Shown here: positions 4,402 to 55,893 of the stretch, piece by piece
Numbering within the stretch: the first letter of the stretch is position 1
Layout: each line of letters begins with the position of its first letter
From: an uncultured Chloroflexia bacterium
GTDB taxonomy: Bacteria > Chloroflexota > Limnocylindria > QHBO01
Reading direction: 5' to 3'
Assembly (NCBI GenBank): GCA_963805305.1
Contig: CAWDTM010000008.1
Coordinates: 628,620-692,619, forward strand
DNA length: 64,000 nt
The notes under the pieces: generated by a model
Told to the model about the DNA's origin: nothing
The model's input: the letters and a program-made list of their open reading frames with translations, nothing else
Databases searched by the model: none
Program-made: the position numbers and the translations under genes

Positions 4402-4478
4402 GACTGCGATACGGTATCCCTGCGCGGGTGGATCAGGGAAGGGGTCCGGAGCGATCCACGCGCCCGGCGGTTCGCGCC

Positions 4479-12051: not shown

Positions 12052-12103
12052 CCCCCACGCCCGCGGTGCGCCGGTTCGGTCCCACCCTCTACACTCGGAC
12101 GGC

Positions 12104-24259: not shown

Positions 24260-24874
24260 ATGGAGCGCCGCGACCGGCCCATGACCACCATCACCCGTCC
24301 TCGCGAGACCGAGCTGTGGGCCGCCGCCACCCGCCTCTTCCGACAGCGTGGCTACCACGCGACCTCGATGCAGGACCTCGCCGAGGCGCTGGGCATGAAC
24401 CGCGGCAGCCTCTATCACTACATCGCCTCGAAGGACGACCTGCTGTGGTCGATCCTGGACCGGACCTTCGACCTCCTCGAGGAGCGAGTGGTGGGGCTGC
24501 TCGGCGGTGACGCTCCTCCGCTGGACCGCCTGACGGGCGCGATACACGCCCATCTGCGCATCGCGGCCGACCACGCGGACGAGATGAGCCTGATCCAGAT
24601 CGAGCTCCGGTCGTTGAGCCCGGAACGCCGCTCGCTGCTCATCGAGCGACGCGACGCGTACGAGGCTGCCTGGCGCCGGACCATTGGCGAGGCAGTTGCC
24701 GGCGGTTCCGTTCGCGATGTGGACGTGCGCCTGGCCGGCATCGGCATCCTTTCGGTCTGCAACTGGTTCACGCAGTGGTACCGGCCGGGGGGCGCGCTCG
24801 CGGTGGACGAGATCGCCGATGCCTTCGTGAGCCTGTTCGTCCAGGGCCTCGCGCCACGGGTGGATGCCGGATGA
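24260..24874 (+). CDS. TetR family transcriptional regulator
   Basis: N-terminal TetR HTH (LFRQRGYHATSMQDLAEALGMNRGSLYHYIASKDDL). Stop overlaps the fadN ATG (ATGA at 24871-24874). Confidence 0.8.
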   Translation: MERRDRPMTTITRPRETELWAAATRLFRQRGYHATSMQDLAEALGMNRGSLYHYIASKDDLLWSILDRTFDLLEERVVGLLGGDAPPLDRLTGAIHAHLRIAADHADEMSLIQIELRSLSPERRSLLIERRDAYEAAWRRTIGEAVAGGSVRDVDVRLAGIGILSVCNWFTQWYRPGGALAVDEIADAFVSLFVQGLAPRVDAG

Positions 24875-27177: not shown

Positions 27178-27190
27178 AGGAGAACGAGTC

Positions 27191-28405
27191 ATGCGTGACG
27201 CCGTCATCGTCTCGGCGGCCCGGACGGCGGTCGGCAAGGCGCCGCGCGGCACGCTGCGCGAGACGCCTCCCGAGGAGCTGGCCATGGCCGCCATCCGCGC
27301 GGCCCTCGAGCGTGCTCCCGGCTTCGATCCCGCTGAGGTCGAGGACCTGGTCCTGGGCTGCGCCATGCCGGAGGGTGCCCAGGGGCTGAACATCGCGCGG
27401 CAGGTGGCCCTGGGCGCCGGCCTGCCCGTCAGCGCCAGTGCCATGACCATCAACCGCTTCTGCGCCTCGGGCCTGCAGGCACTGGCGCTCGCCACCCAGT
27501 CCGTCCAGGCGGGCGTCCACGACGTGGTGATGGCCGGCGGGATGGAGTCCATGAGCTTCGTGCCCATGATCGGCCATCGGTTCACGCCCGACCCGCTCCT
27601 CGCTGATACCCGACCGCAGGTCTACCTGTCCATGGGGCTCACCGCGGAGAACGTGTCGGAACGATTCGGCGTGAGCCGCGAGGACCAGGATGCGTGGGGC
27701 CTTCGCTCGCACCAGCGCGCGTCTGCGGCGCAACGGGAGGGCCGGTTCCGTGACGAGATCACGCCGGTCGCCGCTCGGATCACCGAGGTGGATGCGGATG
27801 GGCGGCCATCCGCACGCGAGGCTGCCTTCGACGCCGACGAGGGGATCCGCCACGACTCCGATGCCGCCAGGATGGCGGCCCTGCGCCCCGTCTTCGCCAC
27901 CCGCGGCACAGTGACCGCCGGCAACTCCAGCCAGATGAGCGACGGTGCGGCCGCACTGCTGGTGATGACCGGCGAACGCGCCGCGGCGCTGGGACTGGAG
28001 CCGCTCGGGCGACTCGTGAGCTTCGCGACCGCCGGGGTCGAGCCCGCGATCATGGGGATCGGTCCCGTGGATGCTGTGCCCCGGGCGCTTCGCAAGGCGG
28101 GCCTTGCGCTCGATGACATCGCGATCACCGAGCTCAACGAGGCGTTCGCCGCGCAGGTCGTGGCCGTGGTCCGCCAGCTGGGGCTCAACGAGGAGACCAC
28201 CAACGTCAACGGCGGGGCCATTGCCCTCGGCCATCCCCTGGGCGCGACCGGCGCCAAGCTGACCGTGCAGGCGCTCGCCGAGCTGGCGCGGCGCGGCGCG
28301 AAGTACGGCCTGGTGACCATGTGCGTGGGAGGCGGGCAGGGCGCTGCGGGCGTCATCGAGTGGCTCGGCGGGCGCCAGCCCGCGCGGGCAGAGGAGGCGG
28401 CATGA
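27191..28405 (+). CDS. fadA: acetyl-CoA C-acyltransferase (thiolase)
   Basis: Thiolase motifs: NRFCASGLQA active Cys, C-terminal GLVTMCVGGGQGAAG. Confidence 0.9.
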   Translation: MRDAVIVSAARTAVGKAPRGTLRETPPEELAMAAIRAALERAPGFDPAEVEDLVLGCAMPEGAQGLNIARQVALGAGLPVSASAMTINRFCASGLQALALATQSVQAGVHDVVMAGGMESMSFVPMIGHRFTPDPLLADTRPQVYLSMGLTAENVSERFGVSREDQDAWGLRSHQRASAAQREGRFRDEITPVAARITEVDADGRPSAREAAFDADEGIRHDSDAARMAALRPVFATRGTVTAGNSSQMSDGAAALLVMTGERAAALGLEPLGRLVSFATAGVEPAIMGIGPVDAVPRALRKAGLALDDIAITELNEAFAAQVVAVVRQLGLNEETTNVNGGAIALGHPLGATGAKLTVQALAELARRGAKYGLVTMCVGGGQGAAGVIEWLGGRQPARAEEAA

Positions 28406-30189
28406 CCACGGAGACCCGGACACCCGCGCAGGCCGCGAGGGGCGGGACCTTCCTGACCGGTCCGGCGCCTGCGGCAGGCGTCTTCACCCCCGAACAGCTC
28501 TCCGACGAGCACCGCGCGATCCGCGATGCGGTCGGCGCCTTCGTCGAGAAGGAGGTCCTCCCCCGCCGTGATGCCGTCGAGGGGACGGGCGGCAAGGACT
28601 ACGCCGTCCACCGGGCCCTCCTGGAGCGGCTCGGTCGTGACGGGTACCTGGGGATCGACGTCCCGGAGGCCTACGGCGGTGCCGGGCTGGACCGCATCAG
28701 CTCCCTCGTGGTCAACGAAGCCATGGCCGGCGCGGGCTCGTTCGCCGTCACGTACGCGGCGCACACCGGGATCGGGACGCTGCCCACCGTGTTCTTCGGG
28801 ACCAATGAGCAGAAGGAGCGGTATCTCCCCGGTCTGGCCGATGGCACGATCGTGGGCGCCTATGCCCTCACCGAGCCGGGCGCCGGGTCCGACGCCATGG
28901 GGATCCGAACCCGGGCGACCCGCGAGCCGGACGGCTCCTGGCGCCTGGACGGCGCGAAGCAGTTCATCACCAACGCCGCCTTCGCCGATCTCTTCACCGT
29001 GTACGCCAAGATCGACGGCGAGCAGTTCACGGCCTTCCTCGTCGAGCGCGACACACCTGGCCTGACCATTGGGCGCGAGGAGGAGAAGATGGGCCTCCAC
29101 GGCGCCTCGACCTGCCCGGTCACCCTGGACGGGGTCGTGGTTCCGGCCGGCAACCTCCTGGGCGAGCCGGGAAAGGGCCACCGGGTCGCCTTCAACGTCC
29201 TGAACGTCGGCCGGTTCAAGCTGGGCGCGGCCTGCCTGGGCGGGATGCGCCCGGCACTCGCGGTGGCCACGCGGTATGCGAAGGACCGATCCGCGTTCGG
29301 CCGCAAGCTGGCGGATTTTCCGCTCATGGGGGCCAAGCTGGCCGGGATCGCGGCGCGCACCTACGCGGTCGAATCGTCCGTGTACCGCATCGCGGGGCTC
29401 CTGGAGGGAAGCCTCGCGGCAGCAGAGGACGCCGCCTCGCCCGATGCCGTCCGCAGCGCGCTCGAGGAGTACGCCGTCGAGTGCAGCGTGGCCAAGGTCC
29501 TCGCCAGCGAGGAGCTGGGCGCGGTCGTGGACGAGGTGGTCCAGATCCACGGCGGGTACGGCTACATCGAGGAGTACCCCGCGGCGGGCTTCTACCGCGA
29601 CGCACGGATCCATCGCATCTGGGAGGGCACCAGCGAGATCAACCGCCTCCTCATCCCGGGGACGCTGCTGAAGCGGGCGATGACCGGTCGGCTGGATCTG
29701 CTGGGTCCCGCGCAGCGCTCGTCCGATCTCCTGATGGGCGGCGAGCTGCCCGCCTTCGATGGGGCGTTTGCCGCGGAGGACGCGGCCGTATTCGCCACGC
29801 GTACCGTCACCCTGCTCCTCGCAGGCGCGGCCGTGCAGCGCCATGCGACGGCCCTCGAAGAGCAGCAGGAGCTGCTTGCCGGCCTCGCGGACCTGGCCAT
29901 CGACCTGTTCGCGATGGAGAGCAGCGTGGAGCGAGCCCGCCAGGCGGCGAGCGCCGGCGGGGCATTGGCATCTGTGCACGCGGATCTCGCGCGGCTGATC
30001 GTGGCGGACCGGCTGGGTGCCGTCGAGCGCCGCGCAAAGGGCCTGGCCGCGTCGGTGGCCAGCGGGGACGAGGCACGCACCCTGGTCGCTGGCATTCGGC
30101 GCATCCTCCGCGCCGATCCGGTGGATGTCATTGGCGTTGCCCGGCGGATCGCCGCCGCGGTGGTGGAGCGCGGAGGGTATCCGGTCTAG
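28402..30189 (+). CDS. fadE: acyl-CoA dehydrogenase
   Basis: ACAD fold, ATGA overlap with fadA. 595 aa. Confidence 0.8.
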   Translation: MTTETRTPAQAARGGTFLTGPAPAAGVFTPEQLSDEHRAIRDAVGAFVEKEVLPRRDAVEGTGGKDYAVHRALLERLGRDGYLGIDVPEAYGGAGLDRISSLVVNEAMAGAGSFAVTYAAHTGIGTLPTVFFGTNEQKERYLPGLADGTIVGAYALTEPGAGSDAMGIRTRATREPDGSWRLDGAKQFITNAAFADLFTVYAKIDGEQFTAFLVERDTPGLTIGREEEKMGLHGASTCPVTLDGVVVPAGNLLGEPGKGHRVAFNVLNVGRFKLGAACLGGMRPALAVATRYAKDRSAFGRKLADFPLMGAKLAGIAARTYAVESSVYRIAGLLEGSLAAAEDAASPDAVRSALEEYAVECSVAKVLASEELGAVVDEVVQIHGGYGYIEEYPAAGFYRDARIHRIWEGTSEINRLLIPGTLLKRAMTGRLDLLGPAQRSSDLLMGGELPAFDGAFAAEDAAVFATRTVTLLLAGAAVQRHATALEEQQELLAGLADLAIDLFAMESSVERARQAASAGGALASVHADLARLIVADRLGAVERRAKGLAASVASGDEARTLVAGIRRILRADPVDVIGVARRIAAAVVERGGYPV

Positions 30190-30203
30190 CGAGCGAGGCG
30201 ACC

Positions 30204-31922
30204 ATGACTGCCAGCCCAACAACGATGCAGCCTGCCAGGGCGGATCGGCCGTGGCTGGCCCACTACGAGGCCGGCGTCCCGGCGGAGATCCAGGTCCCCG
30301 AGCTGACCGTGGACGGCCTGCTGCGCCGGGCGGCGGAGCAGCATCCGGGGCGGACCGCGCTCGTCTTCTTCGGTGCGAGGACCAGCTATCGGCAGCTCGA
30401 TGCCGCGGTGGACCGCTTCGCCCACGTCCTGCACGGGATGGGGATTGGGCATGGCGATCGGGTCAGCCTGCATCTGCCGACCTCGCCGGCCTTCGTGATC
30501 GCCTTCATGGGAGCCCTGCGCGCCGGCGCGGTGGTGGTGTCGATGTCGCCGCTCTACGTCGAGCGCGAGCTTGGCATCCTGTTCGAGCAGACCCGGCCAA
30601 GCGTCGCGGTGGTCCTGGACGCCCTGGTCCCACGCCTCCGGCGCCTCAGCGGGGACCCTGGCGTGCCGGACCGGATGATCGTGACCGGAATCCAGGACTC
30701 GTTGCCCATCCCGCTGCGCTGGCTGTACCCGATCAAGGCGCGGCGCGACGGGACCTGGCATCCGTTGCCGCACACCCCGGAGACGCCGAACCTGTTCCGT
30801 CTGCTGGCCGAGGCACCGTCCGGGCCGTTCGTCTCCGCCGCGGCGCCGGACGACATCGCAGTCCTGCAACCGACCGGCGGCACGACCGGCACCCCCAAGG
30901 CCGCCATGCTCACCCACCGCAACCTCGTGGCGAACGCCGAGCAGGTCTCCGTGTGGTTCCCCGGCGCGGACGAGTTCCCGGTGGTGTTGGCCGCGCTCCC
31001 GTTCTTCCACATCTATGGACTGACCGTGGACCTCGACTACGCGATGCTGCGTGCCGGGACCTTGATCCTGCTCCCCCGCTTCGATCCGCACCAGGTCTTC
31101 GCCGCCATCGCGAAGCATCGACCCAGCCTCTTTCCCGGCGCCCCGATCATGTACCAGACCCTCGCCAACCACCCGGACGCGGCGAAGTACGACCTCAAGA
31201 GCATTCGCGCCTGCATCAGCGGCGCGGCGCCGCTCGCACCGGAGGTGCAGAACGGATTCGAGGCGGCAACCGGCGGCCGGGTGGTCGAGGGCTATGGGCT
31301 CACGGAGGCTGCGCCGGTCACGCACTGCAACCCGGTGATGGGCGAACGGCGCAATGGAACCATTGGCCTGCCGTTCCCCGGCACGGAGGCGCGCGTGGTC
31401 CGTCCCGGAGGCGGCGAACCCCTCCCGGTGGGCGAGGTCGGCGAGCTGGAGGTGCGCGGTCCCCAGGTGATGAGCGGCTACTGGGAGCGTCCGGAGGAAA
31501 CGGCCGCGGTCCTGCGCGACGGCTGGCTGTGCACCGGGGACATGGCTCGTATGTCGCCCGACGGGTACTTCACCATCGTCGACCGCAAGAAGGACCTCGT
31601 CATCGTGGGAGGCATGAACGTCTATCCCCGAGAGGTCGAGGAAGTGCTGCTCAGCCATCCGGCGGTCCGCGAAGCGGCCGTCATCGGCGTGGCGGAGGAG
31701 CGGCACGGGGAGGTGCCCCGCGCCTTCGTGGTCCTCAACCCGGGAGCATCGGTGACATCCGAAGCGCTCGTGAAGCACTGCGAGGGGAACCTGGCACGGT
31801 TCAAGGTGCCACGCACGATCGAGTTCCGGGCCGAGCTCCCCAAGACCATGATCGGAAAGGTGCTCCGCCGGGACCTGCGCGCGGAGGTGGAGCGCGAAGG
31901 CGCGAACGACGACCGACGGTAG
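30204..31922 (+). CDS. fadD: long-chain fatty acid--CoA ligase
   Basis: AMP-binding motifs (LQPTGGTTGTPKAAMLTHRNL; GYGLTEAAPV; VGGMNVYPREVEEVL). Confidence 0.85.
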   Translation: MTASPTTMQPARADRPWLAHYEAGVPAEIQVPELTVDGLLRRAAEQHPGRTALVFFGARTSYRQLDAAVDRFAHVLHGMGIGHGDRVSLHLPTSPAFVIAFMGALRAGAVVVSMSPLYVERELGILFEQTRPSVAVVLDALVPRLRRLSGDPGVPDRMIVTGIQDSLPIPLRWLYPIKARRDGTWHPLPHTPETPNLFRLLAEAPSGPFVSAAAPDDIAVLQPTGGTTGTPKAAMLTHRNLVANAEQVSVWFPGADEFPVVLAALPFFHIYGLTVDLDYAMLRAGTLILLPRFDPHQVFAAIAKHRPSLFPGAPIMYQTLANHPDAAKYDLKSIRACISGAAPLAPEVQNGFEAATGGRVVEGYGLTEAAPVTHCNPVMGERRNGTIGLPFPGTEARVVRPGGGEPLPVGEVGELEVRGPQVMSGYWERPEETAAVLRDGWLCTGDMARMSPDGYFTIVDRKKDLVIVGGMNVYPREVEEVLLSHPAVREAAVIGVAEERHGEVPRAFVVLNPGASVTSEALVKHCEGNLARFKVPRTIEFRAELPKTMIGKVLRRDLRAEVEREGANDDRR

Positions 31923-31989
31923 ACGCCATTGGTCCCTCCTGGACGCGGCTGCGATGATGAGTGGCCGCAAACCCGAGGAGGAAGGATCC

Positions 31990-32367
31990 ATGGCCGAGCA
32001 TCCGAACGCGGCCCTTGTGCGCCGTTCCATTGATGCCATGAACAAGGGCGACGCCGATGCCATCACCGCTGCGTTGGCGCCCGACGTCGAATGGCACGAG
32101 ATCGGCCGGGATGACGCCATCCACGGCCTCCAGGCGCTGGGCGAGCGCTACAGCCAGGGAACTGCCGACTTCACGATCACCGGGACCATCCACGACGTCG
32201 TGGCCAACGACGACCACGTGGTGGCCCTGGTCGAGGCGGAGGCGGATCGCAACGGGAAGCACCTGTCCTACCGGACCGCGGAGATATTCCACGTGAAGGA
32301 CGGCAGGATCACCGCCCGATGGGCCTTCTCGGACGACACCGCCGCCATCAACGCCTTCTTCGCCTGA
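31990..32367 (+). CDS. SnoaL-like / NTF2-fold protein
   Basis: 125-aa ORF with a SnoaL-type pattern (WHEIG...RITARWAF). Confidence 0.55.
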   Translation: MAEHPNAALVRRSIDAMNKGDADAITAALAPDVEWHEIGRDDAIHGLQALGERYSQGTADFTITGTIHDVVANDDHVVALVEAEADRNGKHLSYRTAEIFHVKDGRITARWAFSDDTAAINAFFA

Positions 32368-32386
32368 CCAACCCGGGTCGCGGCCG

Positions 32387-35300
32387 ATGTCGGGCCCGCT
32401 GCCCCCTGCTCCAGCAGCCGAAGGCCGCGGGAGCGATAATCGGCGCGTGGCCCTCTCCGATACCGAGCAGACCAGCGGGGAGATCGGCAAGCCCACCGAG
32501 ACCCCATGGGTCCAGACGCTTGGCGGCAGTGCGCTGGACCCGCGCGTCCAGCCGCAATGCTCGCTCGTGGTCCAGATGCGGCGGGTCACCGGTTCGCTGG
32601 TCGGGCGGTCGAGCGAGCTGGCCACCATCACCAAGGAGCTCAAAGAGGCGGCGGATCGGCTCTGTGCGCTGACCCTGGAGGGTGAGCCCGGTGTCGGCAA
32701 GACGCGCCTCCTGCTGGCCGCGGCCGAGATGGCGGCCAGCTCCGGCTTCACGGTTGTCGCGGTCACCGCCGACGAGGAGATACGCGGGCCCTTCCTGCTG
32801 GCGCAGAGCATCTTCGCGGCGCCGGCCCTGCGGGACGTCATCGGCGGCACCCCGGCCGACGAGGCCGTCCAGCGCGTCATCGAGGCCATCTCCGGGCGGA
32901 GCGAGCCGGGCCTCGAGACGCTGGGTGCCGACTCGAAGGTTCTGCGCGCCTTCGACCTGGCCGGCATGGCCCTAGGTTCGGTGGCATCGCAGCGACCGCT
33001 TGCCCTCCTGATCGACGATGCGCAGTGGGCCGATGCCGACACCCTGCGCCTCCTGCGCTACGTCGTCCGCGCCGATGCCGACCGTCCGATCTTCCTGCTG
33101 CTCACCATTCGGCCTGACGAGTTCGCCACGGTCACGGAGGCCGTGAACTTCGTCGCGGACATGGAGCGGATGGGCCTGGTGCACCGCATGCGCCCGGGCC
33201 GCTTCAGCCAGCTGGAGAGCGGCGAGCTGGCGCGCCAGGTCCTGGGCGGCAGCATCGACCCCGCCTCGGGGGCCGCCATCCACAGCCAGTCGGAGGGCGT
33301 GCCGTTCATCATCGAGGAGCTGGTCCGCACCTACCGCGAGGCCGGGATGATCCAGCAGATCGACGGCGCCTGGACGCTGGGTCGCAACGCGGCGAAGCTC
33401 GTCCCCTCCGCGGTGCGGACCCTCATCGCGCGGCGCTCTGCCCGCCTGCCCGCCGAGACGCGTTCGATCCTTTCCGACGCCGCGGTCCTGGGGCGCAGCT
33501 TCAGCCTGCGTGACCTGCGCGAGATTCGCTCCCGCCTGGACGGGGCGACCGACGCCCCTGGCGCCCTGGCCGATGCGCTGGCCCCCGCGACCGCGGCAGG
33601 TCTCCTCCTCCGGCATGCCGAGGGAGCGCCCGCCGACTACACGTTCACCCATGAGCAGGTCCGCGAGTTCGCCACCAGCGAGCTGTCGCAGGCACGCCGG
33701 CGCGCGGTGCATCGAACCATCGTCGATCTGCTCCTCGAGGCCGGCGAGCCCACGCCGGCTGCGCTTCCCCTCATTGCCCATCACGCGCTCGCAGGGGGCG
33801 ACGCGGAACGCGCGGCGCGCCTCTCCATCGATGCCGCCCACGCGGCTCTGCAGGCCAATGCCCCCGAGGAGGCACTGCGCCTCGTGGTCCAGGCCCTCCC
33901 CAACGTGGCCAGCTCGCAGGACCGCCGCCAGCTCCTGGTCGCCCGTGACGACGCCTACGCCAGCCTGCGCAATGCGGAGGATCGCCTGGAGGGCCTGGCC
34001 GAGCTGGCCGCCCTGGCGGAGGCCATGGGCGAGCCGGCCCTGGAGCTCGACGTGCAGCTGCGGCGGGCGGCGGCCCTCCGTCTTGCCCACGACGAGGAGG
34101 GGGCCGCAGACCTCGCGCGGCGCGTGCAGGCCCGGGCGGCACAGCACGATGACGCCCGATCCGAGCTGCGCGCCGCCCTGGAGCTGGGCCAGGCGCTCAT
34201 GCGCTCGGCGCTGGGTGAGTCCTTCGGGGCATCGGCGGTCGAGGTCGACCTGGATGGCGCTGAGGCGGCCTACCGGGCGGCGATCGCCCTGGCCGAGCGG
34301 CTCGGTGATCAGCGGAGCCTGGCGGGCGCCCTGCGTGAGCTGGCCATGATCCTGCTCTCGCGCATTCGAGCCTGGTTCGTGGGGCAGGTCCAGACCGGGG
34401 AGGTCATGGCCCTCAGCCAGCGCGTCCTTGCCGGAGAGGCCGTCGACGCGGTGCTGTCGACCACGGTGGTCGCGCCCCAGGTCGTCGAGACCACTGCGTG
34501 CCTGGAGCGCGCACTGGCCATCTACGAGGAGCTGGGCGACCGGACCGGCGTGATGTCCACGGTCATCGCCATGGCCTACGTGAACTACGCGCCCACCATC
34601 CACATCAGCTCGTCGGCCCGGCATCTCGAGGAGATCCGGCGGGTGACCTCCCGCCTCTCGGACCTGGTCACGGAGAGCGAGCGTGCCCGCCAGGAGCTCC
34701 AGATGCTGTATGGCGTCCACGTCTACGCCCGGGCCAAGGTGGTCCCCGACCTGATGATCGCGCGCGGGGTTGAGGCGCACCGCATGGCCCGCCTCCTCGG
34801 CGATCGCTCCATCGAGTTCCTCGCCGCCGGCGGGGTGGCCATGAGCCACCTGGATCTTGGCGAGCAGTCCGATGCGGAGGAATGGGTGAGCCGCGCCGCG
34901 ACGGCTGCGGCCGCCTCCCCCACCCCACTGCGTGCGCGACAGCTCGCCCGGTGGCGCGGCCTGTGCAGCACCGCCGCGCGGAACGCCGAGGGCCTGCGCG
35001 AGCACCTGGGGCAGGCGGTGCAGATGGCGACCGACACGGGCCGGCCGGCGGCTCGCTGCGAGGCGCTCTCAGAGCTGGCGCTGGCCGCAGCGCGCCTGGG
35101 TGCCGCCAGCGGCGACGAGGGCCTTCTGGACCTGGGCGAGCGTTCCGCGCACGAGGGGCTCGAGCTGATCGGGGTCCTTCCCGGCCACGCGCCGTGGGGC
35201 GCCCGATCCCAGGCCGCCCTCGCAGCGGTTGCCCTGGCGCGAGGCGAGCGCGAACGAGCAGCGGCCGCCGGAGGAACCGCGATCCAGGCGCTCCAGGAGG

Positions 35301-35749
35301 CGCTCCAGGAGGACAGCAACCTCGACATCCTGCTTCCCGCGGCACGGGCCGTCCTGGCCGGTGGGCCCCCGGAGGCACAGCAGATGACCCGATGGTGGCT
35401 GCAGATGACCCTCTCACGGATCGCCCAGGGCGTCGTCGACGACGAGGTGCGCGTCCGCTGGCTCCGGGGCCCCGTGGGTGGCGAGCTCGCGGAGCTCGCC
35501 GGACCCATGGACGAGCCGGCTCCCGCGCCCGCCGGCGCGAATGGCGGCGAGGTCGGCGCGCTGGACCCCGCCGACCGGGAGCTCCTGCGGCTGCTCACCC
35601 AGGGGAGCACCAACCGGGAGATCGCCGAGCAGCTGGCACTCGACGAGAACGAGGTCGCCCAGCGACTCGCCAGGCTACTGGCCGCCATCGGCGCATCCAC
35701 CCGGGCGCAGGCCACCTCGCTCGCCTTCCGCAGCGTGGCCCGGTCATGA
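32387..35749 (+). CDS. LuxR-family regulator with N-terminal STAND/AAA ATPase and TPR region
   Basis: Walker A GEPGVGKTRLL, long helical repeat region, C-terminal LuxR HTH (LTQGSTNREIAEQLALDENEVAQRLARLL). 1120 aa. Confidence 0.8.
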   Translation: MSGPLPPAPAAEGRGSDNRRVALSDTEQTSGEIGKPTETPWVQTLGGSALDPRVQPQCSLVVQMRRVTGSLVGRSSELATITKELKEAADRLCALTLEGEPGVGKTRLLLAAAEMAASSGFTVVAVTADEEIRGPFLLAQSIFAAPALRDVIGGTPADEAVQRVIEAISGRSEPGLETLGADSKVLRAFDLAGMALGSVASQRPLALLIDDAQWADADTLRLLRYVVRADADRPIFLLLTIRPDEFATVTEAVNFVADMERMGLVHRMRPGRFSQLESGELARQVLGGSIDPASGAAIHSQSEGVPFIIEELVRTYREAGMIQQIDGAWTLGRNAAKLVPSAVRTLIARRSARLPAETRSILSDAAVLGRSFSLRDLREIRSRLDGATDAPGALADALAPATAAGLLLRHAEGAPADYTFTHEQVREFATSELSQARRRAVHRTIVDLLLEAGEPTPAALPLIAHHALAGGDAERAARLSIDAAHAALQANAPEEALRLVVQALPNVASSQDRRQLLVARDDAYASLRNAEDRLEGLAELAALAEAMGEPALELDVQLRRAAALRLAHDEEGAADLARRVQARAAQHDDARSELRAALELGQALMRSALGESFGASAVEVDLDGAEAAYRAAIALAERLGDQRSLAGALRELAMILLSRIRAWFVGQVQTGEVMALSQRVLAGEAVDAVLSTTVVAPQVVETTACLERALAIYEELGDRTGVMSTVIAMAYVNYAPTIHISSSARHLEEIRRVTSRLSDLVTESERARQELQMLYGVHVYARAKVVPDLMIARGVEAHRMARLLGDRSIEFLAAGGVAMSHLDLGEQSDAEEWVSRAATAAAASPTPLRARQLARWRGLCSTAARNAEGLREHLGQAVQMATDTGRPAARCEALSELALAAARLGAASGDEGLLDLGERSAHEGLELIGVLPGHAPWGARSQAALAAVALARGERERAAAAGGTAIQALQEALQEDSNLDILLPAARAVLAGGPPEAQQMTRWWLQMTLSRIAQGVVDDEVRVRWLRGPVGGELAELAGPMDEPAPAPAGANGGEVGALDPADRELLRLLTQGSTNREIAEQLALDENEVAQRLARLLAAIGASTRAQATSLAFRSVARS

Positions 35750-35762
35750 GGGAGCGCGGCGC

Positions 35763-36497
35763 ATGCTGAAGGCGCGCGTGGACCGGCACAAGTGCATTGG
35801 GGCCGGCAACTGCATCACCATCGCGCCCACCGCCTTCGACTGGCTCAAGGGAGACTTCGGCAAGGCCGATGTCGTCGGACCGGGGAGCGTGGAGGAAGAG
35901 CTGCTGCGCACTGCCGCGGACGCCTGCCCCACCGCCGCGATCATCATCGAGGACGTCGAGGAGCTGCTGCCCTGGCAGCTGCGCGGCAAGGCGGGACCGT
36001 CGCGGCGGGTGCTGAAGACCTTCATGTTCACCGACATCGTTGGCTCGACGAACCTCGTCGAGGCCCTGGGCGACGAGGCCTGGGAGACGCTCCTGCGCTG
36101 GCACGACAACACGCTGCGCGAGATCTTCGCCGCGCATTCGGGCGAGGAGGTCTCTTCCACCGGGGACGGCTTCTTCGTGGGCTTCGACTCCCCGGATCTG
36201 GCACTGGCCACGGCCGTGGCCGTCCAGCAGCGCCTGGCAGAGCATCGCGCCAAGAACGGGTTCGCGCCTCAGGTCCGGATCGGGATCCATGTCTCCGACG
36301 CGACCCAGGCCGGTGGCTCGTTCAGCGGGAAGGGCGTCCACGAGGCGGCACGGATTGCCGCCCTCGCCTCCGGGGGCGAGATCCTCGCCAGCGTCGCCAC
36401 CGTGGCCGACACCGCCATCCCCACCTCGGCGCCCCGCAGCGTGATGCTGAAGGGCCTCTCCGAGCCCGTGGACGTCGTCGCGGTGGAGTGGCGCTAG
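35763..36497 (+). CDS. ferredoxin (single [4Fe-4S]-type) fused to class III nucleotidyl cyclase domain
   Basis: N-terminus RVDRHKCIGAGNCITIAPTAF...ADACPTAAI (Cx2..Cx..C ferredoxin pattern). Then a cyclase domain FMFTDIVGST...STGDGFFVGF...RIGIHVSD. Starts 13 nt after the LuxR-STAND stop. Confidence 0.75.
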   Translation: MLKARVDRHKCIGAGNCITIAPTAFDWLKGDFGKADVVGPGSVEEELLRTAADACPTAAIIIEDVEELLPWQLRGKAGPSRRVLKTFMFTDIVGSTNLVEALGDEAWETLLRWHDNTLREIFAAHSGEEVSSTGDGFFVGFDSPDLALATAVAVQQRLAEHRAKNGFAPQVRIGIHVSDATQAGGSFSGKGVHEAARIAALASGGEILASVATVADTAIPTSAPRSVMLKGLSEPVDVVAVEWR

Positions 36498-36537
36498 GAC
36501 CTGCCCGCCGGCCGCCGCCCGCCGCTCCCACGACCGC

Positions 36538-36568
36538 TTGACTCTTACGTTACGTAAGGGTGCATAGT
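36538..36568 (+). promoter_or_regulatory. MerR-type promoter: TTGACT - 19-bp spacer with perfect palindrome CTTACGT-T-ACGTAAG - CATAGT
   Basis: -35 TTGACT at 36538-36543, 19-nt spacer carrying the 7-1-7 inverted repeat, -10-like CATAGT. Immediately upstream of the TipA-like MerR gene. Confidence 0.55.
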
Positions 36569-36575
36569 GCCGCCC

Positions 36576-37355
36576 ATGAACGAATCGGCGGGGGCGAACA
36601 GTCTCAGGGTGGGTGCCGTGGCCCGCATGGCGGGCATCACGGTGCGGACCCTGCACCATTACGACCAGATCGGGCTGCTCCGGCCGGCCGGGCGCTCGGA
36701 TGCGGGCTATCGGCGCTATACCGATGCCGACCTCGAGCGCCTGCAGCAGATCCTCTTCTATCGGGAGCTGGGGTTCGCCCTCGACGAGATCGAGCAGGTC
36801 ATGGCCCGCGGAGCCGCCAGCCCGCTGCTCCACCTTCGGCGGCAGCACGCCCTGCTGCTCGACCGGATCACACGACTCAGGCGGATGGCCACGGCCGTCG
36901 AGAAGGCAATGGAGGCACGAACCATGGGAATCTCACTCACCCCCGAGGAGCGGCTCGAGGTCTTCGGCGACTTCGACCCCGAAGAGCATGCGGCCGAGGT
37001 GCAGGAGCGCTGGGGCGACTCGGACGCGTACCGCGAGTCGCAGCGCCGCGCAGCGCGCTACACGAAGGCTGACTGGGCCCGGATCCGCGACGAGATGGCG
37101 GCGATCACGGAGCGTGCCGCCGCGGCGCTGCGGTCCGGACTGCCTGCCGACGCAACGGAGGCGATGGACGCCGTCGAGGCGCATCGGCTGCAGATCAGCC
37201 GCGACTTCTATCCGTGCTCGCACGAGATCCATGTCGGCCTGGCCGAGATGTACGTCGCAGATCCGCGGTTCACGGCAACGTACGAGAAGGTTGCGCCGGG
37301 CCTGGCGCAGTACGTCCACGACGCGATCCTGGCCAACGCCGCCCGCCATCCCTGA
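36576..37355 (+). CDS. MerR family transcriptional regulator, TipA-like (HTH + TipAS drug-binding domain)
   Basis: MerR HTH VGAVARMAGITVRTLHHYDQIGLL plus a C-terminal TipAS-like domain. ATG at 36576 sits ~8 nt after the -10 box, so the mRNA may be leaderless. The ORF track uses GTG 36567. Confidence 0.8.
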   Translation: MNESAGANSLRVGAVARMAGITVRTLHHYDQIGLLRPAGRSDAGYRRYTDADLERLQQILFYRELGFALDEIEQVMARGAASPLLHLRRQHALLLDRITRLRRMATAVEKAMEARTMGISLTPEERLEVFGDFDPEEHAAEVQERWGDSDAYRESQRRAARYTKADWARIRDEMAAITERAAAALRSGLPADATEAMDAVEAHRLQISRDFYPCSHEIHVGLAEMYVADPRFTATYEKVAPGLAQYVHDAILANAARHP

Positions 37356-41064: not shown

Positions 41065-41291
41065 CCGGGTGACCCTCGAACCGCCAGCCAGGGCCGCCCA
41101 GAGCTCCGCCGGCGGTCACAGGGTTCGCCACGCTAACCGCGCGCGGGTCCCCCACCCGGCGGTGGGCGCGAATCCATCGACGGGACGAGCGGGATCGCGC
41201 AGAATGTGCCGCACGTTCGCCGCCGGCGGACGGCAGCAGTCCGAGGGGACCCCGCGTTGGCGCTGACCAGCACCGCCCCGGATCCGAACCC

Positions 41292-44200
41292 ATGACGAAA
41301 CCTTCCCCGTCCGCCGAGCTGGCTGCAGCACGGAAACGGATCGCGGAGCTCGAGGCGCGCGAGGCCGCGCACGAGCGCGCCGCCCAGGTGCAGGCGGCGT
41401 TGTATCGCATCGCCGAAACCGCCGCATCGGCTCAGGACCTGCCGACCTTCTACGCCACCGTGCACGAGATCGTGGGCGGCCTCATGTACGCGGACAACTT
41501 CTACATCGCGCTCTACGACGCCGAGCGCGAGCGCATGAACTACCCGTACTTCGTCGACACGTACGACTCGGACGTGCCCGATCCCAACGCGTGGGAGCCG
41601 TTCGGCGTGGGGCAGGCCCGGGGTGTCACCGCCTACGCCCTGCGCAGGGACCAGCCATTGCTCATCGATCCGGCCGAGTATCAGCGCCTCCTGGAGGCCG
41701 GCGAGATCGAGACCCTGGGCGTCGTCAAAGACGAGAGCCAATGGTTGGGCGTGCCACTGCGCGCCGAGGGGAGGACTCTGGGTCTGCTGGTGGTCCAGAG
41801 CTACTCCGCCGACCACCGCTACACCGATGCGGACAAGGACCTGCTGGTGTTCGTTGCCCAGCACGTCGCCTCCGCGCTGACGCGCGCCCGGGCCCTCAAG
41901 GAGACGCGCGAGCGGAACGCCGAGCTGGCGATCGTGAACGAGGTCGGCCTGGCGCTGGCGAAGCAGCTGGATTTCAGCGCCGTGATCAACCTTGTCGGCG
42001 ACCGGATCCGCGAGATCTTCGCGGTCGACACGGGGAACATCGGCCTCTACGACGAGGCAGCTTCCACGATCCAGCTCCCCTACTCCATGGACCAGGGCCG
42101 GCGGCTGGAGATGATCTCGCGACCGTTCGGGACCGGGCTGATGTCGGAGGTGATCAGCACCCGGGCGCCACTGCGTCTCAACACGAACGCCGAGGCGGAG
42201 GCGCATGGAGCCTTCATCTACGGATCCGACGAAGCGGAGTCCTGGCTCGGCGTCCCCATCCTTGCCGGTGATCGCGTTCTGGGCGCCATCGGCCTGGAGC
42301 GAGCCGCCCAGCACGCCTTCAGCGAGTCCGACGAGCGCCTGCTCTCCACGCTCGCCGCCAGCATGGGCGTCGCGCTCGAGAACGCGCGCCTCTTCGACGA
42401 GACCAAGCGGCTCCTGGCCGAGACCGAGCAGCGCAACGCCGAGCTGGCGGTCATCAACGAGATCGGTGCAGCGCTGGCGAAGCAGCTGGATTTCGATGCG
42501 ATCACCGAGCTCGTCGGAGAGCGGGTGCGGGCCATCTTCTCCGCGTCGTCCGTGTTCGTGGCCCTCTACGACGAGGCGTCCGGCGTCATCCGCTTCCCGT
42601 ACGAGATCGGCGAGGGCCAGCGGATGCACACCGAGCCCATGCCGCTCAACGAGGGTCTGACCTCGCAGGTCATCCGCTCCCGGACGTCGTTGCGGCTGGG
42701 GTCCACCGCGGAGTCGAGCGCCGCGGGAGGCATCAGCGTGGGAGATGCCTTCACGGAGTCGTGGGTCGGGGTGCCGATCCTCAGCGCCGGCCGCGTCATT
42801 GGCGTGATTGGCCTCGAAAGCCCGCAGGTCAACGCCTACACGGAGGCCGACGAGCGGCTGCTCGCAACGCTCGCCTCGAGCATGGGCGTGGCCCTGGAGA
42901 ACGCGCGTCTGTTCGGTGAGACGAAGCGCCTCCTGGCCGAGACCGATGCGCGCGCCAACGAGCTCGCGGTCATCAACGAGATCGGTGCGGCCCTGGCGCG
43001 GCAGCTCGATTTCAACGCCATCATCGAGCTCGTCGGCGACCGCGTCTCTCAGATACTCCGCTCCAGGGACGTGTCCATCGCCATCCACGACCCGGCGACA
43101 GACCTCATCAGCTTCCCGTACCAGACGGAGGACGGCAAGCACTTCGTCGATGAACCGATTCCCCTGGGGGCTGGGATCACCTCGCGGATCATCCAGACCA
43201 GGGAACCCCTCCGGATTGGTACGGCAGCCGAGGCCGATCTCCTGGGTGCTCACTGGACGGGGAACACCGCCGAGCGCAAGGACTCGTATCTCGGCGTTCC
43301 CATCCCCGCCAGCGACCGCGTGCTGGGAGTCGTCTCGGTGGTTGCCAGCGCCCCGAACGCCTTCTCGGATGCCGACGAACGCCTGATCTCGACCCTCGCC
43401 ACCTCGATGGGCGTTGCGCTGGAGAACGCGCGCTTGTTCGGCGAGACGAAGCGCCTCCTCGCGGAGACGGACGAGCGTGCGGCCGAGCTGGCCATCATCA
43501 ACAGCGTCCAGCAGGGCCTCGCGGCAAACCTGGACATGCAGGCCATGTACGACCTGGTGGGTGACAAGATCCAGGAGATCTTCGATGCGCAGGTGGTCGA
43601 CATCGGCATCCTCGACAGGGACGCCAACGCGATCCAGTTCACGTACACCATCGAGCGTGGGGTGCGCTTCCCGAACGAGACCATGGCCGTCATCGGGCCC
43701 CGCCGCCACGTCCTTGAGACCCGCGAGCCACTCGTCTTCAACGAGGACCTGCTGAACCAGGTCCGGCAGTACGGGCAGGAGGGCGTGGTGTCCGGCGAGC
43801 TGCCGCAGTCGGCGGTCTACGCGCCGCTCATCAGCGGCGGCGAGGCGCGCGGCGTCATCAGCCTCCAGAACCTCGACCGCGAGCACGCGTTCTCGGATGC
43901 CGACGTCCGGCTCCTGATGACCCTTGCCAGCAGCCTGGCGGTCGCGCTCGACAATGCGCGGCTCTTCGGTGAGACGAGGCGCCTTCTGGGCGAGACGGAC
44001 GAGCGTGCCGCCGAGCTGGCGATCATGAACAGCGTCCAGCAAGGCCTTGCCCAGAACCTGGACATGCAGGCGATGTACGAGCTCGTCGGGGACAAGATCC
44101 AGGAGATCTTCGACTCCCAGGTGGTCGACATCGGCATCTTCGACCTCGAGGCAGGGGTGGTCCGCTATCCATACACCATCGAGCGCGGCGTCCGGTTCCC

Positions 44201-47200
44201 GGACCTGCCCACCCCGCTGGCCATGGCCGACCTGTCGCGCGAGATGCTCGCGACCGGCAGCGCCATCCTGATCAACGACGTCCCGGCCTGGGAGGCCGAG
44301 CGCGAACGTTCGGGCGTTGTCCAGGGAGAGCCGCCCCTCTCGGTCCTTATGGTCCCCATCACCTCTGCCGGCACCATCACCGGGCGGATCTCCCTCCAGA
44401 ACCTCGACCGCAGGAATGCCTTCAGCCAGGCCGATCTCCGGCTTCTCTCGACCCTGGCCGCCAGCCTGTCCGTGGCGCTCGACAACGCCCGGCTCTTCGA
44501 CGAGACGAACCGGCGCGCGGCCGAGCTCGCCATCGTCAACGACCTGCAGCGTGCGCTCGCATCGCAGGTCGACGTGCAGGCCATGTACGAGCTGGTGGGC
44601 GAGCGGGCGAACGACGTCTTCGACACGCACGTCGTGGACATCGCCGTCTTCGACCAGGCCGCTGGGACGATGCGGTTCCCCTTCAGCGTCGAACGCGGCA
44701 GCCGGTTCCCGGACGAAGTGCGGCCCATCATGGGCTTCCGCAAGCACGTCCTCGAGAGCCGCATGCCCCTGCTCATCAGCGAGAAGCTGCGCGAGATCGG
44801 CGCCCAGTACGGGCAGGGAGCGCAGATCAAGGGAGAACCGGCGAAGTCGGCCCTCTTCGTGCCGCTCCTCGTTGGCGAGGAGGTGGCCGGCGTCATCAGC
44901 CTCCAGAACCTCGACCGGGAGCATGCATTCACGGACCGCGACCTCTCCCTGCTGACGACCCTGGCCGCCAGCCTCTCCGTGGCGCTGCGGACCGGGCGCC
45001 TGATCGACGAGACCCGCGCGCGCGTGGCGGAGCTGGCGACCATCAACTCGGTGGGCGAGGCGCTGACCGCGCAGGTCGAGATCGCTCCCCTGCTCGAGGT
45101 GGTTGGCGACAAGCTGCGCGACGCCTTCGGGGCCGATATCGCCTTCATCGCGCTGCTGGACGAGGCGGCGGGCCTCATCCGCTTCCCGTACTACGTCGAA
45201 GCCGGAGCCCGGGAGCCGCAGGAGCCCATGGCCCTTGGCGAAGGCCTCAGCTCGCAGATCATCACCACCCGTGAGCCAATCCTCGCCAACCGCGCAGCGG
45301 AGCTCGAGCACGCCCCGCTGGTCGGCACCCGTCCGCGCTCGTTCCTGGGCGTGCCCATCGTGGTCGGCGAGCGCGCCATCGGCGTCATCAGCGTCCAGAG
45401 CACCACCCAGGAGGGTCGCTTCCAGGAGTCCGATGCCCGCCTGCTGTCGACCATTGCCGCGAACGTGGGGGTCGCCGTCCAGAACGCCCGGCTGTATGAC
45501 GAGACCCGGCAGCGCGCGGACCAGATGGCGGCCCTGGCCGACGTGAGCCGCGAGATCTCCGCCACGCTGGAGCGTTCCGCGGTGCTGCACATGATCGCGG
45601 AGCGCGCGAAGACGCTGCTGCGGGGCGACTCCAGCGTCGTGTACCTGCGCACCGACGACCCCGACGTCTTCCGCGCGGAGGTCGCCATTGGACAGCTGGC
45701 GGATGCCGTCCAGGGATTCCCGCTCCTGCGCGGGACGGGGATCATGGGCGCCATCATCGAGTCCGGCCGCGCCGAGGTCGTGAACGACGCCCGCAACGAC
45801 CCGCGCGCCCAGACCATCCCCGGCACGGAGGACGACGAGGAGGACCGCCTCATGGCGGCACCGCTCATCGTCCGCGGCGAGGTGAGCGGCATGCTCGCGG
45901 TCTGGCGGTCCGTTGGCGTCGAGGACTTCAGCGAGCTGGACCTCAGCTTCCTGGTGGGCCTCTCGCAGCAGGCCGCCATCGCGGTGCAGAACGCCGCGCT
46001 CTTCGAGGACACCCTCGAGGCCCGCCAGGCCGCCGAGCAGGCGAACGAGGCCAAGAGCTCGTTCCTGGCGGCCATGAGCCACGAGATCCGGACCCCGTTG
46101 AACGCGGTGATCGGGATGAGCGGACTGCTCGTCGACACGCCGCTCAACGAGGAGCAGCACGACTACGCGGAGACCATCCGCACCTCCGGAGACGCGCTGC
46201 TGACCATCATCAACGACGTCCTGGACTTCTCGAAGATCGAGGCGGGCCGCGTGGAGCTCGAGGCGCGACCGTACGTTCTCCGCGAGGCCGTCGAGGCGTC
46301 GCTCGACATCCTGGCGCCCACGGCGGCCAAGAAGGGCCTGGAGCTGGTCTACGCCATCGACGAGGACCTGCCAACGGTCCTCGTCGGCGACGCCGGCCGC
46401 CTGCGCCAGGTGGTCCTGAACCTGCTCTCGAACGCGGTGAAGTTCACCGAGCGCGGGGAGGTGCTCGTCACCGTGGCCGGGGCGGAGGTGCGCGCCGCGA
46501 CCGGTCGTGCCGCGGCGACCTGGGAGATCCGGGTCGACGTGCGGGACACCGGCATCGGGATCCCCGCCGCCGCCATGGATCGGCTCTTCCAGTCCTTCAG
46601 CCAGGTGGACGCCTCCATTGCACGCCGGTACGGCGGCACCGGACTGGGCCTGGCCATCAGCCGCCGCCTGGCCGAGCTGATGGACGGCTCCCTGACCGCG
46701 GAGAGCAGCGGCAAGGCCGGGGAGGGCAGCACCTTCCACCTGGTGATCCGCAACCCGGTCGGCAGGGCGGACGCCGTGGCCTCCACCCGCGCACCGCGCA
46801 TCGAGGCGGACCTCGGCGGCAAGACGGTCCTGATCGTGGACGACAATGCCACGAATCGCCGCATCCTCGTCGCCCAGACCGCTCGGTGGGGCATGGTCCC
46901 GCGGGAGACGGGCTCCCCCACCGAAGCGCTGGCCTGGCTTGCCGGCGGGGAGCGGTTCGAGGTCATCCTCTCCGACCTGATCATGCCGGAGATGGACGGC
47001 CTGGAGCTCGCCGCGCAGGTTCGCGCGTCGAACGGCAAAGGCGTCCCGCCACCGGTCGTGATCCTCTCCTCCATAGGGCTCCGGGAGCGCGACGACGGGA
47101 GCGTCGCCGGCTGGCTCGCCAAGCCGGTCAAGCCCTCCGCCCTGCATGACACCATCGCAACCATCCTGCTCGGCGGGGTTGCCACCCAGGCGGCTGCGGT

Positions 47201-47684
47201 CGCCACCAGCGGGGCCGACGCCGACACCGTCCTCGGGGAGCGGCACCCGCTGCGCATCCTCCTCGCGGAGGACAACGCGGTGAACCAGAAGCTTGCCCTC
47301 CGGCTCCTGGCCCAGCTCGGCTACGCAGCCCCGGTGGCAGGGGACGGGCTGCAGGCCATTTCGGCGCTCGAAGGCGGCGACTTCGACGTTGTCCTCATGG
47401 ACGTCCAGATGCCGGAGCTCGATGGGCTGGAGGCGACCCGCCGCATCCGCGCCCGCTGGCCGGACCGTCCGCTGCGGATCGTGGCCATGACCGCCAACGC
47501 CATGGCCGGCGACCGCGAGGCGTGCCTCGCGGCGGGCATGGACGACTACATCAGCAAGCCCATTCGCGTCGCGGAGCTCACCGCGGCGCTCGAGCGGGTG
47601 CCGGGCACCGGTCCGACGATTGGCCGGCATCGGACCCGCAAGCAGTCCTCCAGGACCAACGGCAAGAGGAACGCACGTGCCTGA
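41292..47684 (+). CDS. multi-GAF (about 9-10 domains) hybrid sensor histidine kinase with two receiver domains
   Basis: Repeating units: GAF domains separated by conserved coiled-coil linkers (ENARLF(D/G)ETKRLLAET(D/E)...AELA(V/I)IN). Then HisKA ([20 protein letters not shown]), HATPase_c ([13 protein letters not shown]) and two REC domains ([13 protein letters not shown]; [13 protein letters not shown]). 2130 aa. Confidence 0.85.
41886..45560 (+). repeat. intragenic diverged tandem repeat array (~525-bp period, about 8 units) encoding linker+GAF modules
   Basis: Linker-coding blocks recur at ~41886, 42381, 42900, 43425, 43950, 44475, 44990 and 45480. Adjacent units share up to ~85% nucleotide identity by eye. 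Confidence 0.55.
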
Positions 47685-48048
47685 CCAAACACCGGTGCTC
47701 GACGAGTCCGTCCTGGCCGAGCTGCAGACCTCGACGGGAGACGACGCGGCCTTCGTCCGCGAGCTGATCGACACCTTCCTGGCCGATGTCTCGGTCCAGC
47801 TGGACGGCATCGCCGCAGCAGTGCAGGCCAATGATCCCGCTGCCCTCGTCCGGCCGGCGCACACCCTCAAGTCCGGGAGCGCCACCGTGGGTGCCATGCG
47901 GCTGGCCGCGGTTGCGCGCGAGCTGGAGTTTGCGGGCAGATCCGGTGCCCTGGACGCCGGCGCGCAGCGCGGCCTGGAGACCGCCCGAGCAGAAGCCGAT
48001 GCGGCACGCCAGGCCATGGCGGCCTGGCTGGACCGGGAGGTCGGCTGA
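47677..48048 (+). CDS. Hpt (histidine phosphotransfer) domain protein
   Basis: [13 protein letters not shown] (Hpt HxxKG motif). GTG start overlaps the kinase stop. Its stop overlaps the next gene's ATG. Confidence 0.7.
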
Positions 48049-55802: not shown

Positions 55803-55808
55803 CCGATC
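55787..55808 (+). repeat. dispersed repeat copy (CGGTCATTTGGGTCACCCGATC)
   Basis: Direct-orientation copy similar to 54261-54278 and 41038-41064. Confidence 0.5.
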
Positions 55809-55893
55809 ACCACGCTGACCGGGGACCCATCCTCCGGCGGTCGCACGGGTACGTGGGCCGCCACTCCCGCGCGATCAAAACGCTGCCGGACGG

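Follow-up and report, generated by a model that had tools for sequence, protein, structure and literature searches.

The 64,000-nucleotide stretch analysed here (the window; contig CAWDTM010000008.1, positions 628,620 to 692,619) comes from an uncultured Chloroflexia bacterium and carries, at positions 35763-36497 of its plus strand, a gene that we call Fdx-cyclase. To judge by sequence comparison, it is a real and strongly conserved gene that fuses a ferredoxin domain to a class III nucleotidyl cyclase domain, and together with the STAND-LuxR regulator gene directly upstream it looks like an autonomous, co-translated bicistronic unit. We are confident that the iron-sulfur (Fe-S)/cyclase fusion is genuine and that it forms a functional unit with the regulator. 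The composite explanation that we consider best goes further, namely that the state of an Fe-S cluster and the STAND partner jointly control the synthesis of cyclic AMP (cAMP) in this two-gene unit, and we give it about an even chance.

An earlier sequence-only reading of this DNA had described a product of 245 aa. The open reading frame (ORF) and its coordinates were borne out, while the product is 244 aa followed by a stop codon, with an uninterrupted translation. The ferredoxin and cyclase halves alike have a third-position GC of 0.92, so that in a window of ~70% GC the ORF looks typically coding, and the in-frame extension 5' of the ATG has a non-coding-like composition. The 13-nt gap after the regulator was confirmed as well: the regulator stop lies at 35749 and the Fdx-cyclase start at 35763, and the spacer between them (35750-35762, plus strand) holds the ribosome-binding site GGGAG (35750-35754), 8 nt before the ATG. 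The motifs quoted for the protein were all found, i.e. CIGAGNC (C11, C17), C55-P56, FTDIVGST (D91) and SSTGDG (S131, D135). A homologue search at a threshold of E<=1e-3 returned more than 3000 matches, and the architecture was checked in the best 120 clusters. All of these are 241-247 aa long, share the same two-domain architecture and show 72-93% identity. Hence, a chance origin of the ORF is excluded.

For the genomic distribution, one-genome-per-species contigs were scanned, giving 430 confirmed relatives, and the locus context was taken from the best 80 of the 430. Almost all of these 80 loci belong to metagenome-assembled genomes (MAGs) of Chloroflexota/"Candidatus Limnocylindria(les)", together with Actinomycetota (Gaiellaceae, Nitriliruptorales and others), and the nearest genomic relatives are 96-97% identical to Fdx-cyclase, a closeness that makes a soil Limnocylindria-like Chloroflexota genome the very probable source of the window. 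Exact-sequence queries of the contig index gave no record of either the regulator or Fdx-cyclase. Clustering at 50% collapses the family to essentially one cluster. The lone "distant" full-length relative (P0141, 50% identity) was considered as a second subfamily and rejected, because it turned out to be a copy with a frameshift and a garbled middle.

An orthologue of the STAND-LuxR regulator lies directly upstream of Fdx-cyclase, on the same strand, in 80/80 loci, so the link to this gene that had been drawn from a single locus holds throughout the sample. The regulator TGA and the cyclase ATG overlap as TGATG in 50/80 loci, and in most of the others the gap is at most 25 nt; the window copy has its 13-nt spacer in place of the overlap. 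Meanwhile, the identities of the two proteins to their window copies co-vary (r = 0.93, n = 52 loci), with the cyclase evolving more slowly than the regulator (mean identity 75% versus 61% among distant loci). When the window neighbours were compared with the 80 loci by tblastn, all others, including the downstream MerR/TipAS gene, were confined to near-identical relatives, and de novo clustering of the flanking ORFs revealed no further neighbour family in more than 13/80 loci.

The only neighbours that do recur, each in a subset of the loci, have links to redox chemistry or iron. They are a Rieske VanA-like oxygenase (13/80), a protein with ferritin-like and zf-UBP parts (13/80) and a luciferase-like monooxygenase (9/80). 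Examples are found in loci L046 (1071-2207), L074 (937-2346) and L012 (7241-8269). It should be further pointed out that several candidates for true STAND-LuxR-Fdx-cyclase fusions were rejected. The metagenomic ORFs P0123-P0126 run from a LuxR C-terminus into a ferredoxin, and loci L023 and L044 show no in-frame stop between the two genes; both are probable frameshift artefacts, since they come from fragments or from long-read MAGs with split high-scoring segment pairs.

The regulator (32447-35749, plus strand) consists of a STAND (AAA_16) NTPase domain, a helical region and a LuxR-type helix-turn-helix (HTH) domain. AAA_16 was detected at ~32597-33097 (Pfam E 4.6e-16) and the C-terminal GerE/LuxR HTH at ~35576-35725 (Pfam E 1.7e-5), and the translation contains the Walker A motif GEPGVGKT and the Walker B motif LLIDDAQW. 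The AAA and LuxR parts of the AAA/TPR/LuxR regulator proposed earlier are thus supported, but the window copy matched no TPR model in Pfam at E<=0.1; TPR_12 is present in a few homologues. A length of 1120 aa had also been stated. This is indeed the longest ORF (32387-35749, plus strand, from ATG 32387), but the probable start is GTG 32447, which gives 1100 aa. The new start follows from the position of a -10-like hexamer, GATAAT (32435-32440, plus strand), 6 nt before the GTG, and the resulting length agrees with homologue lengths of 1097-1100 aa; regulator homologues as a whole span 1080-1170 aa.

The pattern SATAAT-N6-RTG has a single match in the 64-kb window, against 0.12 expected. Under a strict definition, (C/G)ATAAT lies 6-7 nt (8 nt in one locus) before an in-frame ATG or GTG in 29/64 related loci, and comparison of the loci gave the consensus gcGTCATAATCCGCCgcATG for the conserved AT-rich hexamer region upstream of the regulator. 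In high-GC Gram-positive bacteria, leaderless transcripts have their -10 box right next to the start codon, and the regulator-cyclase pair apparently has its own, leaderless promoter. This promoter emerged solely from the comparison of loci, as a generic sigma-70 and terminator scan of 31700-36800 gave nothing useful. In many loci (e.g. L013, L026, L030, L068 and L079) the hexamer is flanked by GCGGCG ... CGCCGC (GCGGCGTCATAATCCGCCGC), so that the promoter region takes the form GCGGCG-TCATAATC-CGCCGC. These flanks are not clearly present in the window copy; they may be an operator through which the LuxR domain regulates its own gene.

The combination of a cyclase, an ATPase and a LuxR module has a known counterpart in the Mclx proteins (Rv0386, Rv1358, Rv2488c), which carry all three in one chain and were described as a combination nearly exclusive to mycobacteria and of unknown function (PMC4452763). 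In addition, PMC2277376 lists Rv0890c (882 aa) and Rv0891c (285 aa) as a coding sequence that is split or interrupted. The window pair has the same modules, a class III cyclase, an AAA_16/STAND ATPase and a LuxR HTH, and its regulator shows the AAA_16-type ATPase with Walker motifs and the C-terminal LuxR HTH by which Mclx proteins are recognised. However, Mclx proteins are single polypeptides with the cyclase at the N-terminus, whereas the window has two genes, the regulator first and a separate cyclase, joined to a ferredoxin, downstream. In the window family the split is the conserved state (80/80 loci; 0/120 regulators fused) and not a pseudogenising frameshift, and the hosts are Chloroflexota and non-mycobacterial Actinomycetota, unlike those of Mclx. 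The description of the pair as a split mycobacterial-type arrangement is apt as an analogy (PMC4452763), but this is not a simple split: the gene order is reversed, and in the closest fused relatives the cyclase is the C-terminal part.

Outside the family, the nearest relatives of the cyclase domain (57-62% identity) form the C-terminal part of larger regulators, with the architectures AAA_16-...-GerE-cyclase (P0137, 1158 aa), AAA_16-TPR-cyclase (P0142), SARP-AAA_16-cyclase (P0148), SARP-cyclase (P0129) and MalT-like-TPR-cyclase (P0127, P0133 and P0136). In P0137 the domain order ATPase ... LuxR ... cyclase is the same as the gene order of the window pair, while the metagenomic AAA_16, SARP and TPR fusions have neither the ferredoxin domain nor the LLPWQLR linker described below. 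They do share with Fdx-cyclase a His in place of the canonical Asn (133/144 domains of the subfamily). Judged from these architectures, the lineage to which the Fdx-cyclase catalytic domain belongs is habitually wired to STAND/TPR regulators, in an order that matches the two genes.

The ferredoxin domain is of the single-cluster type and occupies residues 1-62 (35763-35948, plus strand). As the Cys pattern had suggested, the N-terminus matches Pfam Fer4_13 (residues 6-60, E 4.4e-9, 37.3 bits against a cut-off of 24.5) and Fer4_15 (E 1.1e-7, above the gathering cut-off), and residues 1-64 can be aligned over their whole length with single-cluster ferredoxins of solved structure, such as that of T. 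maritima (1ROF, CIGCGVC, E 9e-9). Full-length alignments were also obtained with 1DWL, 2Z8Q and 4ID8 and with the ferredoxins of D. africanus and D. gigas. The P. furiosus matches are 2Z8Q (a D14C variant) and 1SIZ, with the native motif CIGDAIC, and the R. palustris match is 4ID8, with CQGHARC. The motif of the present domain is C11-x2-A14-x2-C17...C55-P56, spread over ~60 aa, with its Cys codons at 35793-35795, 35811-35813 and 35925-35927 (plus strand). Among 121 family members (the query and its 120 best homologues, the set used for all residue conservation), C11, A14, C17 and P56 are invariant and C55 is found in 120. Fdx-cyclase has only these three Cys, and the same total holds in 109/121 members.

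At the second Cys of CxxCxxC, Fdx-cyclase has Ala, the P. furiosus ferredoxin Asp and the R. palustris ferredoxin His. Three Cys ligands with a non-ligating Ala are the signature of [3Fe-4S] ferredoxins, and a [3Fe-4S]-type site is predicted here from the three Cys and the Ala at the fourth-ligand position. Just before C11, the pair R8-H9 (35784-35789) is invariant in the family and unusual, as the aligned ferredoxins have D/A/Q-D; it could be a candidate fourth cluster ligand or a redox-tuning pair.

The linker that follows (residues 63-85; 35949-36017, plus strand) contains the invariant stretch L68-L69-P70-W71-Q72-L73-R74 and is the best-conserved segment of the protein. Its mean identity to the query is 84%, compared with 78% for the ferredoxin domain and 75% for the cyclase domain, the two domains being conserved on a par. 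In relatives of the cyclase domain without a ferredoxin, LLPWQLR is not conserved.

The nearest precedent for such a fusion is a ~30-member bioinformatic cluster of membrane class IIIb adenylyl cyclases from alpha- and beta-proteobacteria (e.g. R. palustris Q132R4; Beltz et al. 2016, eLife), in which a ferredoxin stands between a six-transmembrane, cytochrome-b-like haem-binding anchor and the catalytic domain, and for which redox-to-cAMP coupling was predicted (PMC4821796). In both groups the ferredoxin module is N-terminal to a class III catalytic domain. In contrast, Fdx-cyclase is soluble, has 244 aa, belongs to an Rv1900c-like branch, carries a three-Cys site and has a STAND-LuxR partner. 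It lacks the six-transmembrane anchor, and since its ferredoxin begins at residue 1-6 of 244, a membrane segment is impossible. No characterised Fe-S- or ferredoxin-linked nucleotidyl cyclase was found in full-text literature searches, the lone precedent being this bioinformatic one (PMC4821796).

The remaining part of Fdx-cyclase, residues 86-244 with the stop codon (36018-36497, plus strand), is the class III nucleotidyl cyclase domain, assigned by Guanylate_cyc, by matches in the PDB and by fold matches. Pfam Guanylate_cyc (PF00211) covers residues 86-177 (E 3e-7, 30.7 bits, cut-off 21.9), so that Fer4-type and cyclase models are both found above their gathering cut-offs. In NCBIfam, residues 58-216 align to the cyclase part of LipJ/Rv1900c at E 1e-29, far under the 800-bit cut-off of that model. 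The closest solved proteins by sequence are Ma1120 of M. avium (E 1.7e-23) and the cyclase domain of Rv1900c (LipJ) of M. tuberculosis (E 2.1e-20). The same two lead the Foldseek results (target TM-scores 0.89-0.94, E 1e-14 to 1e-16, 34-38% identity) for an AlphaFold2 model whose cyclase domain has 10-residue block means of ~74-96 in predicted local distance difference test (pLDDT).

The two metal-binding Asp on which the cyclase assignment had been based, D91 (FTDIVGST) and D135 (GDG), align with the metal Asp of Ma1120 and Rv1900c and are invariant in 121/121 members, as is the transition-state Arg, R197. In the LKG motif, G231 is invariant and K230 is at least 90% conserved. The class III assignment thus stands with its catalytic core intact, and the invariance of this core argues for Fdx-cyclase being an active enzyme.

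The residues that recognise the base are another matter. S131 does align with the Lys position (K101 of Ma1120), as the sequence-only reading had seen in SSTGD, and S186 aligns with D157 of Ma1120, so that neither canonical base-specifying pair (Lys/Asp for ATP, Glu/Cys-type for GTP) is present. The Asn position of the transition-state pair is occupied by H193 in 121/121 members, and by A164 in Ma1120. Position 131 is Ser in 105/121 members and otherwise Val, Asp or Thr; position 186 is Asn, Asp, Ser or Gln. As both vary within the family, neither is under tight constraint. A set of 144 more remote cyclase domains from the same subfamily was also compared; Asp, Arg and His are near-invariant there, with His in place of Asn in 133/144, while position 131 is D/K/N/S/V/H.

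Rv1900c and Ma1120 have the same metal Asp pair, Arg and LKG as Fdx-cyclase. By alignment count, the Lys position is N342 in Rv1900c and the Asn position H402, a non-Lys/His pattern that parallels S131/H193; Ma1120 differs from Fdx-cyclase in retaining the Lys/Asp pair. Rv1900c is accepted as an adenylyl cyclase and said to act as both an adenylyl and a guanylyl cyclase (PMC4886424). Ma1120 is active with Ala at the Asn position, and its change to Asn drastically reduced adenylyl cyclase activity and abolished guanylyl cyclase activity (PMC4215837). Non-canonical base and Asn residues are thus a known trait of the Rv1900c/Ma1120 branch, and because active Rv1900c shares the pattern, Ser at the Lys position is not evidence for a new specificity. 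The altered nucleotide specificity suggested earlier is therefore not upheld, given this shared pattern, the activity of Ma1120 without the Asn and the variability of positions 131 and 186. By analogy with Rv1900c and Ma1120, the substrate of Fdx-cyclase is most probably ATP and its product cAMP. Outside the catalytic domain, Rv1900c begins with an alpha/beta-hydrolase domain and Ma1120 with a short extension; both are without a ferredoxin, and neither is reported to be paired with a STAND-LuxR gene.

If catalysis is left aside, Fdx-cyclase might instead be mainly a sensor or regulatory subunit of the STAND-LuxR protein, its cyclase domain serving for docking or dimerisation with little or no catalysis and the Fe-S state controlling transcription by protein contact instead of a diffusible nucleotide. 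Obligate pairing and translational coupling suggest just such a stoichiometric complex, and Pfam matches only part of the cyclase domain (residues 86-177), with a weak score of 30.7 bits. The missing canonical Lys/Asp/Asn residues point in the same direction, but Rv1900c and Ma1120, which are equally non-canonical, are active enzymes. The role of the cyclase domain is likewise unresolved in Mclx (PMC4452763). On the other hand, the (near-)invariance of the metal Asp, the Arg and the Lys-Gly of LKG across two phyla, in the family as well as the wider subfamily, is hard to explain without catalysis. We regard this alternative as unlikely, though serious enough to be kept in mind.

A second alternative accepts catalysis and assigns Fdx-cyclase a product other than cAMP (cGMP, cCMP, cUMP or another) from the Ser/Ser at the base-specifying positions. 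Ser replaces the Lys in 105/121 members, yet neither position 131 nor position 186 is fixed within the family, and across the subfamily both are highly variable, unlike a specificity determinant. The PycC profiles of Pycsar do match weakly (best E 2.7e-5, 21.7 bits), as does the uridylate cyclase chain 8jsz (E 0.11), but these matches are no better than generic class III similarity, with Ma1120 and Rv1900c at E 1e-20 to 1e-23. For cGMP, the dual activity attributed to Rv1900c (PMC4886424) would be in favour, whereas the guanylyl-cyclase marker Glu is absent (PMC4215837). Another nucleotide is thus rather improbable.

In the composite explanation that we prefer, the two genes would form one self-contained signalling unit with its own leaderless promoter and usually with translational coupling. 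Fdx-cyclase would be a class III cyclase of the Rv1900c/Ma1120 type, soluble and homodimeric, with one three-Cys Fe-S cluster, and the presence or redox state of the cluster, as set by redox poise, oxidants or the iron/Fe-S supply, would be relayed through the LLPWQLR linker, which would permit or block formation of the catalytic cyclase dimer. Such gating may be likened to that by an N-terminal autoinhibitory segment of Ma1120, which Barathy and co-workers reportedly described in 2015; the Ma1120 segment aligns weakly with the Fdx-cyclase linker (EEL..W), and this is compatible with linker gating. The cyclase would further act in physical contact with the STAND-LuxR protein, as related cyclase domains are covalently joined to STAND/TPR C-termini. 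Both the output of cAMP and transcription through LuxR would then depend on the Fe-S input together with ATP-dependent STAND assembly. We infer four of these elements: the cluster type, the gating of activity by the cluster, ATP as the substrate and the physical contact with the STAND protein.

Several points weigh against this explanation. In the AlphaFold2 model, which was built cofactor-free from a shallow alignment, residues 1-70 (ferredoxin and linker) have a pLDDT of 35-59, so that the gating contact and its geometry are without structural support. A [3Fe-4S] cluster is comparatively oxygen-stable and could have a structural or electron-transfer role only. As the canonical Lys/Asp pair is replaced by S131/S186, the preference for ATP has the Rv1900c precedent as its only basis. 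Fusions to Fer4 or cyclase domains are absent from the best 120 regulator homologues (0/120). Orthology of the window regulator to P0137 was considered and rejected, since BLASTP of the STAND part of P0137 against the regulator gave nothing significant, and with the one fusion tested showing no similarity the evidence from fusions is one of domain-family analogy, not of orthology. Moreover, cultured organisms are absent among the best 80 loci, and cyclase activity and cluster gating are predictions for the family as a whole.

A bolder form of the same scheme, to which we attach only a slight probability, is an AND gate. Here the STAND-LuxR protein would oligomerise on its own cue and recruit Fdx-cyclase, and catalysis would need both this proximity and the correct cluster state, the product perhaps being something other than cAMP. 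If true, the AND gate would be the first mechanism for the cyclase/ATPase/LuxR combination, including Mclx of M. tuberculosis, and its Fdx-cyclase would be the first Fe-S-regulated nucleotidyl cyclase.

Two further alternatives are very hard to credit. An Avs- or Pycsar-like anti-phage or conflict system would draw on the occurrence of both STAND NTPases and class III-like cyclases in defence and on the weak PADLOC PycC matches, but PADLOC system models match neither protein convincingly, the 80 loci have no conserved adjacent effector gene with a nucleotide-binding domain (the sole conserved neighbour being the STAND-LuxR gene), the STAND protein ends in a LuxR DNA-binding domain, the flanks are ordinary metabolic genes, and the divergence of the pair follows that of its hosts over many species, as in vertical housekeeping-type inheritance. 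Equally remote is an ordinary electron carrier for a nearby oxygenase, with a cyclase fusion of no regulatory meaning: CxxAxxC...CP three-Cys ferredoxins do typically serve P450s and oxygenases in high-GC bacteria, related chains (4ID8, 8AMP/8AMQ) are among the ferredoxin matches and redox enzymes lie near some loci (Rieske VanA-like in 13/80, luciferase-like monooxygenase in 9/80), yet no oxygenase is conserved with the pair, whose only constant partner is the STAND-LuxR gene, and more than 120 sequence clusters show the same fusion with an unvarying length (~244 aa) and linker.

The window contains three further class III cyclase genes. One (11960-16021, plus strand, 1353 aa) encodes two Guanylate_cyc stretches followed by AAA_16 and TPR, i.e. 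a fused cyclase-STAND protein with an N-terminal cyclase, in which no LuxR was detected. The second (47835-49133, plus strand) encodes a response-regulator-cyclase, directly downstream of a gene (41073-47684, plus strand) for a hybrid histidine kinase of 2203 aa, in which nine GAF domains are combined with HisKA/HATPase_c and two receiver domains. The third (54381-55874, minus strand) is a canonical class III cyclase (PF00211 E 2e-59).

Upstream of the regulator, a beta-oxidation block (24511-31922, plus strand) encodes 3-hydroxyacyl-CoA dehydrogenase/enoyl-CoA hydratase, thiolase, acyl-CoA dehydrogenase and AMP-binding acyl-CoA synthetase, the last (~30201-31922, plus strand) having been picked by codon-position GC and not by longest ORFs; a SnoaL-like gene (31954-32367, plus strand) stands between this block and the regulator. 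Downstream of Fdx-cyclase, the MerR/TipAS gene has a promoter (36538-36578, plus strand) with TTGACT at 36538-36543 and CATAGT at 36563-36568, 7 nt from the ATG at 36576. Its 19-nt spacer contains the perfect palindrome CTTACGT-T-ACGTAAG (36544-36558). By its motifs, this is a MerR-type long-spacer promoter with a leaderless layout, and the gene probably starts at 36576 rather than at GTG 36567. Finally, a heliorhodopsin gene (3619-4710, minus strand; PF18761 E 6.6e-99) adjoins the genes for threonyl-tRNA synthetase and IF3.

Taken together, the two genes probably serve abundant but uncultured soil bacteria as a signalling unit that senses redox state or iron, one not characterised so far. That class III cyclases take up many kinds of sensor domain is familiar; the new features are the cofactor, the strictness of the two-gene coupling and the wide spread in uncultured soil phyla. 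The cyclase/STAND/LuxR combination is thus not confined to mycobacteria, and the pairing with STAND-LuxR offers an experimental handle on why these modules keep combining. As Fdx-cyclase is soluble, has only 244 aa, retains 72-97% identity across two phyla and occurs in hundreds of species genomes, it would be a tractable test case for the coupling of redox or iron status to cAMP.

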